From an uncultured Planctomycetia bacterium (GTDB lineage: Bacteria; Omnitrophota; Gorgyraeia; 1-14-0-20-64-10), in contig CAYJVR010000001.1 in assembly GCA_964373715.1 (NCBI GenBank), positions 269,888 through 333,887 of the forward strand: a stretch of 64,000 bases of DNA, written 5' to 3'. This document shows, in pieces, positions 19,080 through 43,065 of the stretch (position 1 is the first letter of the stretch; each line of letters begins with the position of its first letter). The translations under genes and the position numbers were made by a program. The notes beneath the pieces are model-generated. The model was not told the origin of the DNA and did not search any database. It worked only from the letters and a program-made list of their open reading frames with translations.

Positions 19080-20066
19080 TTACCGCACCGCTTCCCCGTT
19101 CGAGAATTCCTCGCGGATGAGGAACAGGGGGCGCGCCTTCAGTTCATCGAAAATGACAGCGATGTATTCGGCGATGATCGCTAGCAGAAGGCCTTGAATG
19201 AAGCCGGTCATGCCCAGCAGCGCTGTTGTGGTTGCCCAACCGGGAATAGCAAGATTAGTGAACAACTTGACTATGATGGCAGACAGGCCGATCATAAACA
19301 AGGTAAATCCGTAAAGGATTGAGAGGATGCTGGCGCACCGTAAAGGAGTCTTGGAGAACGAGATAAGCGCTGTTTTTGCCAGCCGCAGCATCCCGCTGAG
19401 TCCCACGCGGCTTTTTCCCATGGTCCTGCCGGGCCTGTCGTAGGGGATGGTCGCTTGCTTGCCGCCTACCCACGCCCTTAACCCGGCAAAGTAACGCTCC
19501 TTCTCAGGCATGGCGTTTAAGATGTCCACCACCCGCCTGTCCATCAGGCAGAAAGTTCCTGCCTGTTTCGGGATCGGCGTGTCCGAAATCTTATCGAGCA
19601 AGAGATAAAAGAGGGCGATGAAACAGCGCGTGGCGAAAGATTCGCGGCGGGATTTCCGGAGGCCGTAAACCACCTCGGAACCTTTTTGCCACTGTTCGAG
19701 GAATTGCGGGATCAGCTCCGGCGGGTCTTGAAGATCTCCGTCCATGACGATGACCGCCCTTCCCCGGGAGGCCGTTAATCCGGCGCTGAGGGCCGGCATA
19801 TGGCCGAAACGGCGGAACAGGTTGATGACCCGCAGTTCAGGCAGGGTCCTGCTTAAGTTGACGAGCGTCGGGAGGGTTGAGTCGGTGCTCCCGTCGTTGA
19901 CGATGATAATTTCAAAGGGGATCTTCGTCTGCCGGCAGCTTTCTGCCAGGCGCCGGATCAGTTCGGGCGCGAGGGCCTCTTCGTTGAACAAAGGGGCCAC
20001 CACGGAAAGCCCGGGACCTCCCGACGGAGGTTGTTGGCCGGAACGTGGGCTTAGGTTTTGCGTCAT
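19080..20066 (-). CDS. polyprenyl-phosphate glycosyltransferase, ArnC/DPM1-like GT2
   Basis: LSVVAPLFNEE…IIIVNDGSTDST…VMDGDLQDPPE catalytic core plus two C-terminal TM helices. Confidence 0.75.
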   Translation of the reverse strand: MTQNLSPRSGQQPPSGGPGLSVVAPLFNEEALAPELIRRLAESCRQTKIPFEIIIVNDGSTDSTLPTLVNLSRTLPELRVINLFRRFGHMPALSAGLTASRGRAVIVMDGDLQDPPELIPQFLEQWQKGSEVVYGLRKSRRESFATRCFIALFYLLLDKISDTPIPKQAGTFCLMDRRVVDILNAMPEKERYFAGLRAWVGGKQATIPYDRPGRTMGKSRVGLSGMLRLAKTALISFSKTPLRCASILSILYGFTLFMIGLSAIIVKLFTNLAIPGWATTTALLGMTGFIQGLLLAIIAEYIAVIFDELKARPLFLIREEFSNGEAVR

Positions 20067-21632
20067 TCAGTGCTCCTTTTTTAAGACGGTCACCGGCGGC
20101 GCCTGCCCGTCGGTAAGAAACCGGTGATAACCCGGGTCAGGACGATTTTGCCAGGGAATATCGGGTGCGTCAAGGACAAGCTCCTTGTATCGGTGCTTGA
20201 TTTCGGCGTAGTAAGGGCTTTTAAAAAACTCGTTCGGTATCCAGTCCCTGCGCAGGATGATCCAGTCCGGGAATGTCTCATTCCGAAAGTCCCGCTCGTT
20301 GCGGACCTGTTCGACAGCCAGAGAGGTGTAGAAGATCAGCGGGTGTTCTTCATAAGGGGCTTTTATCGTCTGTCCGGCCCGGCTTTCTTTTTGAAGGAGT
20401 TCCACGATTCCGTCGATGGGGCCTCTGTAAGCATGGGTCAGCTCTCCGAGGAATTCCGCCGGGAGCGACCGTATCCGCACCTTCGGCGAAGAGAGTCTCG
20501 AGCGGATCGCTGGAATTTGTGCCCCCAAGAGGGCCAGCCCGGAGTGATGGATTGCGTCGGTGAGCAGCAGCGCGCCGGCCAGAATGATCCCCGTGGCTAT
20601 CTTTGCCCGGATCAGCCGGGCCAGCAGGGCCGCTTGGACCATGAGGAGGAGCGGAACCAGGAAAATGATGTAGCGGAAGTGCCGCTGTTCGGGTACCAGC
20701 ACCAGAAAGGCGAAACCGGCGGCGATAATCAAAGCGGTGAGCCGCCAACCTTGGCGTGTATTCCCGGAGGAATTCTCGGGAAGGGAACGAAAAGGCCCGC
20801 GCCAGGCCAATCGGAGAATAATCCAGAAAAAGATCGGCACCAGGAATTTGTTCGTCTGGCGGATGTAAAACTGGAAATGGTGGCTGATCTCTTTCCAGGA
20901 AAATCCCTTGTGGTGCTGCCCCGGATCCAGGTAAATGATCCAAGGGAGGGTGAGCGCCGCCAAAGGGATCAGGACCGCCAATCCCCTGCTCCACCGGTCC
21001 TTTTCCCTGTTTTTGGCCAGGAAATGGAGAGCGCAACCGGCCAGGAGGGGAACGAAAATTCCGTGATCGGAATGAAAAAGCAGGGTCAACGCCGCCGCAA
21101 ATTCGACGGACGAGAGGCTCTTTTTATGGAGGAAACGCCAGTAAGCGAGGATCGCCCAGAGCGTGAAGAGGGCCGCCGGCGCGTAGTACCTGCACTGCCT
21201 CATGTGGAGAAGGAACGGAACGCAGAGGACCAGGCTTAGGGTTGTCAGCCGGGCGGTCAGGGTGTCCGATGTCAGGCGTTTGCTTAACAGGTAAGCCAGC
21301 CAGATGGAGATGAGTCCCATCAGCGCGAATGGAACCCGGGCGGCCCATGTATCGGTCCCAAAAAGGGCGAAAGAGCCTGCGGCCAGATACATCGGCAGCC
21401 AGCTGTGGTAGGTCCAGGCGTAGTTTTCTTTGACCGTGAGGCTTGGGTTGAGCCGGTTGATTCCGTCGAACGCCCTGGGATAGCCGAAGGTAAGGATATT
21501 CTTCCCTAAAACGGCTGTTTCGGCTTCATCCTGCCAAAGACGCCCGTTGTCCAGCCGGGTAAAAAGAAGGACCGCCGCCGTCAGCAGAAAAAAGAGAATC
21601 CAAGGGTCAAAGGATAAGGAGCGTATTTTCAT
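20067..21632 (-). CDS. ArnT/PMT-like GT-C membrane glycosyltransferase
   Basis: 521 aa, more than 10 TM helices, and an N-terminal loop RLDNGRLWQDEAETAVLGKNIL typical of the GT39/GT83 (ArnT) family. It lies directly downstream of the ArnC-like gene. Confidence 0.7.
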   Translation of the reverse strand: MKIRSLSFDPWILFFLLTAAVLLFTRLDNGRLWQDEAETAVLGKNILTFGYPRAFDGINRLNPSLTVKENYAWTYHSWLPMYLAAGSFALFGTDTWAARVPFALMGLISIWLAYLLSKRLTSDTLTARLTTLSLVLCVPFLLHMRQCRYYAPAALFTLWAILAYWRFLHKKSLSSVEFAAALTLLFHSDHGIFVPLLAGCALHFLAKNREKDRWSRGLAVLIPLAALTLPWIIYLDPGQHHKGFSWKEISHHFQFYIRQTNKFLVPIFFWIILRLAWRGPFRSLPENSSGNTRQGWRLTALIIAAGFAFLVLVPEQRHFRYIIFLVPLLLMVQAALLARLIRAKIATGIILAGALLLTDAIHHSGLALLGAQIPAIRSRLSSPKVRIRSLPAEFLGELTHAYRGPIDGIVELLQKESRAGQTIKAPYEEHPLIFYTSLAVEQVRNERDFRNETFPDWIILRRDWIPNEFFKSPYYAEIKHRYKELVLDAPDIPWQNRPDPGYHRFLTDGQAPPVTVLKKEH

Positions 21633-21645
21633 AATCCGGAATAGG

Positions 21646-41678: not shown

Positions 41679-41727
41679 GGGCTATGCCTTTCCCGCAGAT
41701 TCCCGCGGCGTCAGTTTATTAATGAGT

Positions 41728-43065
41728 TCATTCATTCGATTGCTCCGGGCTCATCTTGCGGGCGCCTAAGCCGGCGATGCCGGCCCGAATCCCCGCCAGC
41801 AGGTGAACTACCCCCATGGCCATGATTGGACTTAACATCGGTTCAAGCGCCAATCTGTGCCGTCCCTCGATGTAAAACAGGCTTTGAGAGAGACTGATAA
41901 TGGTTGCCATGATAACGATGAGCCACACCCTTATCCGCAGTTCAGGGATCAAATGCTTCGCTGCCAGGAACCCCTGCAGTCCGGCGATGGCTAAAAGAGT
42001 CCACCAGAGCTTGTACCATTTCATCCATTCGGTGGAATACCGAAGGCCGGCTTGCGGTGAAAACCACCAGAAATAGAAAAACTTTTTAGCTGTCCGAAGA
42101 AGGAATCCCAATGGGTTGGATCGAACGTAAGCAAGCGCTGCTTCACCGAACACCCGGTTTTGGCCGATTTCATCGGTTTCATAAATCCGATCAGAGAACT
42201 CTTTCGGCGCAAGGGATAGAATATCGACATTTTCCTGATTAAGAGCGGATCCTGTGGCGTTCGGGTTGTTCCCGAGCCAGAAAACAAACGGAGTATTGCT
42301 CCGTGTGAGCATGAATTGCCCGTGGACCGCGTAATTCCGGATGATCCAGGGACAGAGGATCCCCGCCGTAGCCCCGAGCGCAAGGACAATCCGGATACAT
42401 GTTTCCCTGTTCTGGGTTTTGGTAAAGCGGTATGTCCACCACGCGACAAGCGGAACAAGAAGGATAATCGTGGGACGCGTCAGGATGCCTAACCCGGTGA
42501 GAATTCCCATCAGCAGAATCCGCGGCCTGGTTGGATGATCCGCGTAAGCGAAAGCGGACCAGATGACCAAAGTGAAGAAAAGGGCATCTAGGTTAAGCGG
42601 ATGCTGTTTAGCTGAGTAGATAACGAGGCCCGGATGGATAGACATCAGCAGTCCAGCCGCCCAAGCGATTGTCATGGATTTTGTTAAAAGAAGGGCAGAT
42701 TTTCCGGCGAAAACGACCGTCAAAGCGGACAGAAAGATTTGCGCCAAAACAAGGGCTGGTTGGCTGTGTCGGCTTATGAAGTAGACGGCGGCGACAAAGT
42801 AAGGATAAAGAGGCTCGCAGTAAGACCTGTAAGAGGTGCCGAAATGTTTAAAGACGAATCCCGTACCCTGCAAGATATTCTTTGCAATAGATTCATATTC
42901 CCACAATTCCGGATGCCACAGCCGTCCGGTCAAGATGACAAATCCTAGACGGATGAATGCGGCTGTCCAGAAGAGGGTAATCCATAAAGGCCGGGCGTTA
43001 TGTGCCTTCACATTGAGCGGCGAGCGGTCGCCACGACAAATTGGTACGCAAACAGGCGTTTCCAT
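41728..43065 (-). CDS. ArnT/PMT-like GT-C membrane glycosyltransferase, paralog B
   Basis: Shares the blocks FVFWLGNNPNATGSA, FYFWWFSPQAG and SQSLFYIEGRHRL with the 37061..38305 gene. An alternative GTG start at about 43011 would give a GTGA overlap with the upstream stop. Confidence 0.6.
   Translation of the reverse strand: METPVCVPICRGDRSPLNVKAHNARPLWITLFWTAAFIRLGFVILTGRLWHPELWEYESIAKNILQGTGFVFKHFGTSYRSYCEPLYPYFVAAVYFISRHSQPALVLAQIFLSALTVVFAGKSALLLTKSMTIAWAAGLLMSIHPGLVIYSAKQHPLNLDALFFTLVIWSAFAYADHPTRPRILLMGILTGLGILTRPTIILLVPLVAWWTYRFTKTQNRETCIRIVLALGATAGILCPWIIRNYAVHGQFMLTRSNTPFVFWLGNNPNATGSALNQENVDILSLAPKEFSDRIYETDEIGQNRVFGEAALAYVRSNPLGFLLRTAKKFFYFWWFSPQAGLRYSTEWMKWYKLWWTLLAIAGLQGFLAAKHLIPELRIRVWLIVIMATIISLSQSLFYIEGRHRLALEPMLSPIMAMGVVHLLAGIRAGIAGLGARKMSPEQSNE

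Follow-up and report, generated by a model that had tools for sequence, protein, structure and literature searches.

Which envelope sugars do the ArnT-like membrane glycosyltransferases of an uncultured bacterium handle, and do they belong to an aminoarabinose pathway? The question is raised by a 64,000-nucleotide stretch of DNA (hereafter, the window) from an organism labelled Planctomycetia in GenBank and placed in the Omnitrophota by GTDB (assembly GCA_964373715.1, contig CAYJVR010000001.1, positions 269,888 to 333,887). A preliminary description of window positions 19080 to 43065 read an expanded ‘Arn (aminoarabinose)-like’ undecaprenyl-phosphate sugar system into the genes found there. 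The open reading frames (ORFs) that it listed lie where it placed them, on the minus strand (as do all genes located below to the right of position 19080), and carry the domains that it named at or above Pfam gathering scores. The pathway label, by contrast, did not hold up. We consider it likely that the genes form several Gtr-type three-component extracytoplasmic glycosylation modules, embedded among soluble Leloir glycosyltransferases, a WecA-type phosphotransferase, and a WaaL-like ligase. This part of the window is probably the central portion of a co-directional, minus-strand supercluster of at least 50 kb for a cell-envelope glycan of the lipopolysaccharide (LPS) core/O-polysaccharide type in the Omnitrophota. 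The answer draws on observed domain and fold identities, paralogy, gene coupling, and conservation of the modules in other genomes. In three-component systems, a cytoplasmic family 2 glycosyltransferase (GT2) charges polyprenyl phosphate with a sugar, the product is flipped, and a membrane glycosyltransferase of the GT-C type adds the sugar at the outer face of the inner membrane (PMC11127046).

The ORFs of the gene chain were scanned with Pfam and NCBIfam, Pfam gathering scores serving as cut-offs. Three products match the GT-C family PMT_2 (cut-off 26.1 bits), in agreement with the number originally reported: GTCa (20067..21632; 521 aa with at least seven transmembrane [TM] helices and a soluble tail of ~160 aa; 39.8 bits), GTCc (37061..38305; 414 aa, the gene caller placing the ATG start at 38305; 36.5 bits), and GTCd (41728..43065; 445 aa from an ATG, or 427 aa from the GTG at 43011 in the NCBI call; 33.4 bits). 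GTCc and GTCd had been described as clear paralogs, which they are (35% identity over 384 aa, E 8e-63). An AlphaFold2 model of GTCd built with 41 homologs reached a pLDDT of 91.6 and a pTM of 0.90, and the 17 best Foldseek matches of this model in the PDB are all GT-C enzymes (probability 1.00). ArnT (5EZM/5F15) comes first, followed by STT3, PglB, and Pmt1-2, with ALG9, ALG3, and Emb close behind; identity to ArnT 5EZM is 15%, a likeness at the level of the fold only. As modelled, GTCd has the GT-C_A fold of ArnT, STT3, and PMT proteins, and GTCc, being 35% identical to GTCd, is expected to share the GT-C fold. The GT-C candidates thus did not resolve to families other than glycosyltransferases. 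Profiles of the GTCc/d family and of the GTCb family introduced next had zero matches among PDB sequences.

The preliminary description had also suggested that a 709-aa polytopic protein, here GTCb (29043..31172), might be a fourth member. Its own PMT_2 score of 20.3 bits falls below the cut-off, and the suggestion is nonetheless a reasonable one: the GTCb family profile aligns to the GTCc/d family profile at 95% in hhalign (E 2.5e-8), and among 60 relatives scanned, from a family of 1569 at E<=1e-3, 15 match PMT_2 and 4 match PMT. In GTCb, two conserved TM blocks, one N-terminal (1-290) and one C-terminal (540-709), enclose a variable soluble middle, and conservation reaches at least 90% at D72 and K171-D172 across the 60 sequences. 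GTCa aligns to the GTCc/d profile at 93%, with D34-E35 placed on the W55-E56 pair that is invariant in the 42-sequence alignment of the GTCd family; R402-H403-R404 and E408 are likewise invariant in that alignment, where E58 is conserved in at least 90% of sequences. In GT-C enzymes, the catalytic acid sits just after the first TM helix (TM1). An acidic motif occupies that position in all four proteins (D34-E35 in GTCa, D72 in GTCb, W-E in GTCc, and W55-E56 in GTCd). A conserved acidic residue in the predicted first extracytoplasmic loop, which had been proposed as a check on the assignment, was thus found in GTCd, GTCa, and GTCb; its catalytic role is putative.

Two GT2 proteins are the prospective partners of these enzymes. 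GT2a (19080..20066; 328 aa, Glycos_transf_2 88.8 bits) has two C-terminal TM helices (247-265 and 288-306), and its best solved relative is the Synechocystis GtrB protein sll0501, matched over the full length at 215 bits, compared with 116 for ArnC; the NCBIfam models for PgfS (193 bits) and ArnC (NF007986, 121.5 bits) both stay below their cut-offs. GT2b (39686..40528; 280 aa, Pfam GT2 113 bits) is closest among solved proteins to the dolichyl-phosphate mannose synthase (DPMS) of P. furiosus (115 bits over residues 50-262; ArnC 53), and it matches PgfS, ArnC (51.7 bits), AglJ, Dol-P-hexose transferase, and PpgS models weakly, each below cut-off. The TM scan of GT2b returned zero helices. By these similarities, GT2a and GT2b qualify as predicted polyprenyl-monophosphate sugar synthases, of GtrB type and DPMS type, respectively.

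Apart from the orphan GTCb, these GT-C and GT2 genes are arranged in three modules. Module 1 is GTCa followed by GT2a, the stop codon of the former abutting the ATG of the latter (TGAATG), downstream of two GT9 genes and the WaaL-like ligase gene; the order GT9-GT9-GTCa-GT2 is kept in three Omnitrophota relatives (loci L008, L009, and L052 of our collection). Module 2 comprises the gene of a DegT-family sugar 4-aminotransferase (40521..41678; DegT_DnrJ_EryC1 398 bits), GT2b, two genes for class I S-adenosylmethionine (SAM) methyltransferases (38931..39686, 251 aa according to the gene caller, and 38302..38931, 209 aa; Methyltransf_11 68 and 59.6 bits, respectively), and GTCc, which is in one operon with GT2b and 1.4 kb downstream of it. 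The aminotransferase gene overlaps the start of GT2b by 8 nt, and the ATG of GTCc overlaps the stop of the upstream methyltransferase gene 38302..38931 (ATGA), such that the two are translationally coupled. All five genes recur in identical order in the Omnitrophota locus L057 (600, 366, 307, 252, and 374 bits).

Module 3 is a two-gene cassette (41728-43778) in which a MetW-like SAM methyltransferase gene (43008..43778; 256 aa, Methyltransf_23 68 bits, MetW 45 bits) overlaps GTCd (GTGA). The GC content at third codon positions (GC3) is 0.54 in the methyltransferase gene and 0.59 in GTCd, against ~0.70 in the locus; the cassette is absent at this site in L057 and GCA_023818695.1, the two closest syntenic genomes; and the methyltransferase–GT-C pair, often after a GT2 of 255-265 aa, recurs on unrelated contigs (L004-L007, L082, and L083). 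For these reasons, Module 3 has the appearance of a cassette gained by horizontal transfer, not of a local duplication. A recent tandem duplication was considered as the origin of GTCc and GTCd and rejected on their identity of only 35%, their differing GC3 (0.69 and 0.59), and the absence of the GTCd cassette from close relatives.

How far does this arrangement extend beyond the window? A genome-wide scan returned 71 loci of the GTCc/d family, from metagenome-assembled genomes (MAGs) labelled Omnitrophota, Acidobacteriota, Planctomycetia, Chloroflexota, Bacteroidota, and a few other groups; the family is present in at least five phyla. Neighbourhoods were counted in those 26 loci in which the GT-C gene is flanked by 4 kb or more on either side. 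In 15 of them, a polyprenyl-phosphate-type GT2 is no more than 3.5 kb away; a methyltransferase occurs within 1.5 kb in nine, and a gene for a GT4-DUF218 fusion within 1.5 kb in seven, the last being the commonest immediate neighbour in the Omnitrophota. DegT enzymes occur within 5 kb in 4/26 and are of differing kinds: those of L016 and L022 are of the dTDP-Fuc4N transaminase type, above cut-off, and L047 has RfbH alongside a CDP-glucose dehydratase. From lineage to lineage, then, the family seems to act on differing 6-deoxy or amino sugars. In L083 (3746-6763) and L084 (1913-4930), the GT-C gene is followed by one encoding a single 1005-aa GT2+GT4+DUF218 protein and then by SDR (short-chain dehydrogenase/reductase) and AsnB genes, the same order in which the window has separate genes at 35997-37103, 34114-36066, 33152-34123, and 31179-33143; this fusion ties GTCc to the GT2/GT4-DUF218/SDR/AsnB block.

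Is any of this aminoarabinose modification? In a streamlined Arn pathway, the SDR encoded at 26790..27776 would convert UDP-glucuronate by oxidative decarboxylation to a UDP-4-keto-pentose, the DegT enzyme would convert it to UDP-4-amino-4-deoxy-arabinose (UDP-Ara4N), GT2b would load undecaprenyl phosphate without formylation and deformylation, and GTCc and GTCd would add Ara4N or methylated Ara4N to lipid A or the core. Every enzyme class needed is indeed present, ArnT is the top structural match of GTCd, and ArnB and ArnC are among the sub-threshold matches. The NCBIfam equivalog models tell against the pathway, all scoring far under their cut-offs: ArnA (NF005998) 129.9 of 777 bits, ArnB (NF008658) 223 of 631, ArnC (NF007986) 121.5 of 529, and ArnT (NF009784) 29.9 of 567, the last on GTCd, the other window GT-Cs having no match. 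The ranking of solved relatives points the same way, since the aminotransferase resembles perosamine synthetase (at nearly twice the bits of ArnB), GT2a is of GtrB type, GT2b is of DPMS type and scores twice as high against DPMS as against ArnC, and the SDR is of UXS type. The preliminary description had seen neither an ArnA formyltransferase domain nor an ArnD deformylase, and had asked for UDP-glucose dehydrogenase to be sought. Across the 64 kb of the window, which leaves the rest of the genome as a possible place for such genes, we found no ArnA-type formyltransferase, no ArnD-type deacetylase (Polysacc_deac_1), no Ugd (UDPG_MGDP_dh), and no small multi-TM ORF of ArnE/F type (EamA/SMR-like); the sole Formyl_trans domain is that of Fmt, beside Def, at 7287-8774.

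The SDR itself is a single-domain protein of 328 aa (Epimerase 186 bits), unlike ArnA, in which the oxidative decarboxylase of UDP-glucuronate carries a formyltransferase domain at its N-terminus, and it was correctly described as decarboxylase-type rather than a 4-epimerase. Human UXS1, a UDP-glucuronate decarboxylase, matches it at 211 bits, against ~120 for ArnA, ~139 for GalE (the best epimerase), and at most 152 for other families; no NCBIfam equivalog model passed. Aligned to UXS1, it shows the decarboxylase set of T-S-E, Y, K, and R residues (STSEIYG for STSEVYG, YSTSK for YDEGK, and RRVPDISKA for KRKPDIKKA), a set that would also speak for the streamlined Arn pathway. Dehydratases and epimerases have motifs of the TDE or SxxT type. 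Assignment as a 4-epimerase or 4,6-dehydratase was rejected on the TSE motif and the bit scores. The SDR gene lies 13 kb from the aminotransferase gene, and in 11 related loci it is fixed in a block GT4-SDR-PNPT(-WaaL-GT9-GT9), PNPT denoting the polyprenyl-phosphate N-acetylhexosamine-1-phosphate transferase, with a DegT gene near the GT-C gene in only 2/11; on this synteny, the idea that the SDR and the aminotransferase work together was rejected. By its conserved company, the SDR belongs to the backbone block (GT4-UXS-PNPT-WaaL) and not to an amino-sugar branch, and it would most likely supply UDP-xylose or a related pentose rather than an Ara4N precursor.

The most Arn-reminiscent GT-C context that we saw is that of L004 (1-9233; JGI 3300027815), where genes for Ugd, a carbamoyltransferase, a DegT enzyme, an SDR, a GT2, a MetW-like methyltransferase, and a GTCd homolog are grouped, followed by a B12-radical-SAM enzyme gene. 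This grouping would favour a streamlined Arn pathway; the SDR beside the aminotransferase there, as in L025 and L028, is 4,6-dehydratase-like, not ArnA-like. Taken together, the scores, the gene distances, and the missing components make an Arn pathway, even a streamlined one, very unlikely.

A second possibility is a narrower version of the modular reading. The aminotransferase scores 344 bits against C. crescentus perosamine synthetase (3BN1/3DR4), as opposed to 177-184 against solved ArnB chains, and among the NCBIfam models, which include none specific to Per, LegC comes nearest to its cut-off (334 of 420 bits), ahead of PseC (265 of 423) and ArnB (223 of 631). The enzyme appears closest to GDP-perosamine synthase and LegC, the latter likewise an enzyme of GDP-sugars. 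GDP-perosamine synthase acts on GDP-4-keto-6-deoxymannose, normally in the company of GDP-mannose 4,6-dehydratase (Gmd). Module 2 might accordingly be a perosamine-type system, in which the aminotransferase forms a GDP-4-amino-6-deoxy sugar, GT2b loads it onto polyprenyl phosphate, the two methyltransferases methylate it, and GTCc (perhaps also GTCd) adds it to LPS, and we regard this version as unlikely. Just as doubtful is its corollary, that the product is a cationic sugar and hence a GDP-mannose-derived functional analogue of the Ara4N modification. The best solved relatives do pair coherently, a GDP-perosamine synthase with a DPMS that uses GDP-mannose; the aminotransferase and GT2b genes overlap, and the order of the module is kept in L057; a GDP-fucose-synthase-like SDR in the locus implies a pool of GDP-4-keto-6-deoxymannose; and GT-C genes stand beside the dTDP-Fuc4N-type transaminases of L016 and L022. 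Against this version, Gmd was found neither in the window nor in L057, best matches are no basis for nucleotide or sugar specificity, and the methyltransferases are generic, their solved relatives yielding class I matches only. A further possibility is that the aminotransferase forms part of the legionaminic/pseudaminic-type gene set in its operon, given its LegC score and the NeuB genes there.

More specific still, and even less probable, is the proposal that Module 2 and GTCd, the latter as a second outlet, make and transfer a methylated, GDP-mannose-derived 4-amino-4,6-dideoxyhexose on polyprenyl phosphate, loaded by a DPMS-type synthase devoid of TM helices, onto LPS. If true, this would be an Ara4N-like cationic envelope modification, independent of Arn and using a previously undescribed lipid-linked donor, and GTCc and GTCd would stand for a new ArnT-fold GT-C family, lacking a solved sequence relative, across Omnitrophota, Acidobacteriota, Planctomycetota, Chloroflexota, and Bacteroidota.

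Family membership suggests yet another role, since PMT_2 is the Pfam family of the GT-Cs and ‘glycosyltransferase family 39’ the NCBI name of their homologs. They could be protein O-glycosyltransferases (PMT/TMTC-like) that mannosylate periplasmic or surface proteins from polyprenyl-phosphate mannose made by GT2b, their position in the locus being incidental; the DPMS-like character of GT2b would agree, and some relatives of GTCb carry TPR repeats, as TMTC proteins do. We find this highly improbable: the top fold match is ArnT and not Pmt, the genes are translationally coupled inside a glycan-assembly operon, the GT2/GT4-DUF218, SDR, AsnB, PNPT, and WaaL neighbours are kept across phyla, and the Pfam scan found neither a MIR domain nor TPR repeats in the four window GT-Cs.

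The reading that we prefer thus remains a set of Gtr-type modules. In the cytoplasm, a GT2 would load one sugar onto polyprenyl phosphate; the lipid-linked sugar would then be flipped, and a GT-C would add it to an acceptor at the outer face of the inner membrane. For Module 1, the similarity to GtrB and the GT9 and WaaL neighbours point to a donor that is probably a hexose and to lipid A-core or a ligated glycan as acceptor. The donor of Module 2 may be an amino-6-deoxyhexose made by the aminotransferase, whereas Module 3 lacks a synthase and presumably draws on a donor from another source, possibly GT2b. SAM is a cytoplasmic compound. The window methyltransferases have zero TM helices in a hydropathy scan and are presumed to be cytoplasmic as well, for which reason the sugar would be methylated while still nucleotide- or lipid-linked, ahead of flipping. 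The earlier proposal of several polyprenyl-phosphate sugars with dedicated GT-Cs therefore survives in its modular part, through the abutting GT2a and GTCa, the DPMS-like GT2b, the fold of GTCd, and the recurrence of a GT2 near the GT-C, and fails in its Arn framing.

Several points weigh against this reading. Of the three features that define a three-component system, the synthase and the adjacent GT-C were found; as for the third, no flippase of GtrA/SMR or ArnE/F type appeared among the small ORFs of the window. Modules 2 and 3 together have two GT-Cs and one synthase, so that their pairing is a guess. It is also conceivable that the aminotransferase works with the nonulosonic-acid genes located upstream in its operon, and membership of PMT_2 would equally fit protein O-glycosylation. 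GTCb is a probable fourth, orphan GT-C relative on profile evidence only; an AlphaFold2 model from five sequences was too poor (pLDDT 45), and its fold search gave no significant match. More generally, we infer the donor sugars, acceptors, order of methylation, and identity of the flippase.

The surroundings bear out the envelope-glycan character of the locus. The minus-strand genes form an almost gap-free chain from ~11.5 kb to the right end of the window, containing many GT2 and GT4 genes, the two GT9 genes, a Wzy_C/WaaL-like ligase, a WecA/MraY-type phosphotransferase, SDRs, an AsnB-type amidotransferase, and KpsC/S-like Capsule_synth proteins. The left end of the window is occupied by housekeeping genes (PGK, TIM, GAPDH, Fmt-Def, and PriA). 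PGK shares 66-78% identity with proteins named ‘Candidatus Omnitrophica’, and the Omnitrophota MAG GCA_023818695.1 matches the entire locus in synteny, which places the organism in the Omnitrophota. Proteins identical to those of the window occur in the Logan assemblies ERR3478686, ERR3478687, and ERR4904390. Two adjacent, overlapping ORFs at 5197-7363 (minus strand) encode GalT/HIT-like paralogs of the galactose-1-phosphate uridylyltransferase family (DUF4921/DUF4931). A 596-aa protein with two tandem GT2 domains is encoded at 13211-15001 (minus strand), and after it come two GT2 genes that are paralogs of each other (14929-16101 and 15993-17075; 37% identity, E 3e-56).

Next to Module 1, the GT9 (heptosyltransferase-family) genes at 21646-22713 and 22710-23759 match Glyco_transf_9 at 80 and 85 bits, the heptosyltransferase II/III models staying below cut-off on both, and the WaaL-like Wzy_C-family ligase (23690..24949) has ~10 TM helices and a Wzy_C score of 84.8 bits. 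The initiating PNPT of WecA/MraY type (24946..26757; Glycos_transf_4 122 bits) is fused to the TM/CoA_binding_3 part that is N-terminal in WbaP-like proteins (CoA_binding_3 46 bits): the catalytic domain takes up residues ~1-330, and positions 1-223 of the TIGR03025 profile fall on residues 365-591. This part, with its four TM helices, is usually the N-terminus of phosphoglycosyltransferases of WbaP/WcaJ type; the fused architecture of 600-603 aa is kept in L006, L008, and L009. Beyond the UXS-type SDR follows a GT4 glycosyltransferase (27854..29056; Glycos_transf_1 115 bits, Glyco_transf_4 95 bits).

Between GTCb and GTCc lie an AsnB-type glutamine amidotransferase (31179..33143; Asn_synthase 318 bits, and 605 bits with TIGR03108, below cut-off), the GDP-L-fucose-synthase-like SDR (33152..34123; NF047922 282 bits, cut-off 500), the 650-aa fusion of a GT4, a single TM helix (450-468), and DUF218 (34114..36066; DUF218 105 bits, Glyco_trans_1_4 53 bits), and a TuaG/PglI-like GT2 of 368 aa (35997..37103), which by its Pfam and NCBIfam matches and its lack of TM helices is a soluble Leloir-type glycosyltransferase, not a polyprenyl-phosphate-sugar synthase. 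DUF218 is ElyC/SanA-like, and the fusion suggests a cytoplasmic glycosyltransferase coupled to a domain predicted to lie across the membrane.

To the right of Module 3, two tandem Capsule_synth (KpsC/KpsS-like) paralogs of 487 aa each (43881-46794) are found, the second of which the ORF list fuses into an 871-aa frame; such a pair also precedes Module 2 in L057. Between them and a PhyH-like gene, a 493-aa protein with ~10 TM helices (46791-48272), the one polytopic protein of the window without an assignment, had no match to Pfam, NCBIfam, or GT-C profiles, and is a candidate flippase or polymerase of the locus. The right end (53304-63995) holds two WbuX-type N-acetyl-sugar amidotransferases, each with HisH/HisF-like partners (53304-58647 and 58625-63995), one pair of which is fused into a single 489-aa protein, together with two NeuB-type synthases, a CMP-transferase, a GNAT protein, a class III aminotransferase, and a GFO/IDH/MocA oxidoreductase. 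This gene content suggests acetamidino-modified nonulosonic acids.

The co-occurrence of ‘ArnT-like’, ‘ArnB’, ‘ArnC’, and ‘UXS’ annotations is not, then, a sign of aminoarabinose modification or of polymyxin-type resistance in this locus. As the general mechanism is in the textbooks, the gain is incremental. What the locus offers is the delineation of a widespread, unstudied GT-C family, GTCc/d, that is found in envelope-glycan loci of uncultured phyla and repeatedly keeps company with a GT2 synthase, a translationally coupled SAM methyltransferase, and a GT4-DUF218 fusion, together with a concrete parts list for periplasmic glycan decoration in the Omnitrophota, the surfaces of which are essentially uncharacterised.

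Among known systems, the Gtr systems of Shigella and Salmonella (GtrA/GtrB/Gtr*; PMC11127046) are the model for our reading: a GtrB-type GT2a with C-terminal TM helices adjoins a GT-C in an LPS-type locus, and the logic of adding single sugars extracytoplasmically, after assembly, would be the same. Unlike them, the window has no GtrA-like flippase gene, several GT-Cs from families that lack solved sequence relatives, and a module to which an aminotransferase, methyltransferases, and a DPMS-like synthase without TM helices are added. With Arn (PmrHFIJKLM), the locus shares an aminotransferase, a GT2 polyprenyl-phosphate-sugar synthase, and an ArnT-fold GT-C in one operon, and an SDR of the UDP-glucuronate decarboxylase type; it differs in the failure of the ArnA/B/C/T models, in the absence from the window of a formyltransferase domain of ArnA type, ArnD, ArnE/F, and Ugd, in a UXS-like SDR that is not syntenic with the aminotransferase, and in the Per/LegC-like and DPMS-like character of the aminotransferase and the synthase.

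Dolichyl-phosphate mannose synthase with PMT, and the archaeal Agl proteins (AglJ, AglS, and AglP), come to mind through GT2b, nearest to the P. furiosus enzyme, and through the PMT_2 matches of the GT-Cs, and AglP is a precedent for a methyltransferase acting on lipid-linked sugars. The window differs from these in being a bacterial LPS-type operon whose GT2b lacks the TM helices of DPMS, and protein acceptors are unlikely. In the Rgt system, the bactoprenyl-phosphate-galacturonic acid (GalA) synthase RgtE is shared by the ArnT-like RgtA-D/F, which decorate lipid A and core. Rhizobium Rgt is therefore a precedent for multiple ArnT-like GT-Cs that outnumber their synthases (PMC7663294), and several ArnT-like GT-Cs of the window may likewise share one synthase, a likeness of organisation rather than one drawn from sequence comparison; the Rgt genes are dispersed and add GalA, whereas those of the window are clustered with methyltransferases and an aminotransferase. 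The preliminary description called the scheme more elaborate than single lipid A-Ara4N modification, which is true; it is not new, given Rgt in Rhizobium and the three-component systems (PMC11127046). Finally, the loci for streptococcal rhamnose polysaccharides contain more than one GT2/GT-C pair, each for a different side-chain sugar (PMC11754754, PMC9574508). Those are Gram-positive cell-wall polymers made with UDP-Glc/GlcNAc donors and other GT-C families; what they have in common with the locus described here is the presence of multiple GT2/GT-C pairs in one polysaccharide locus.

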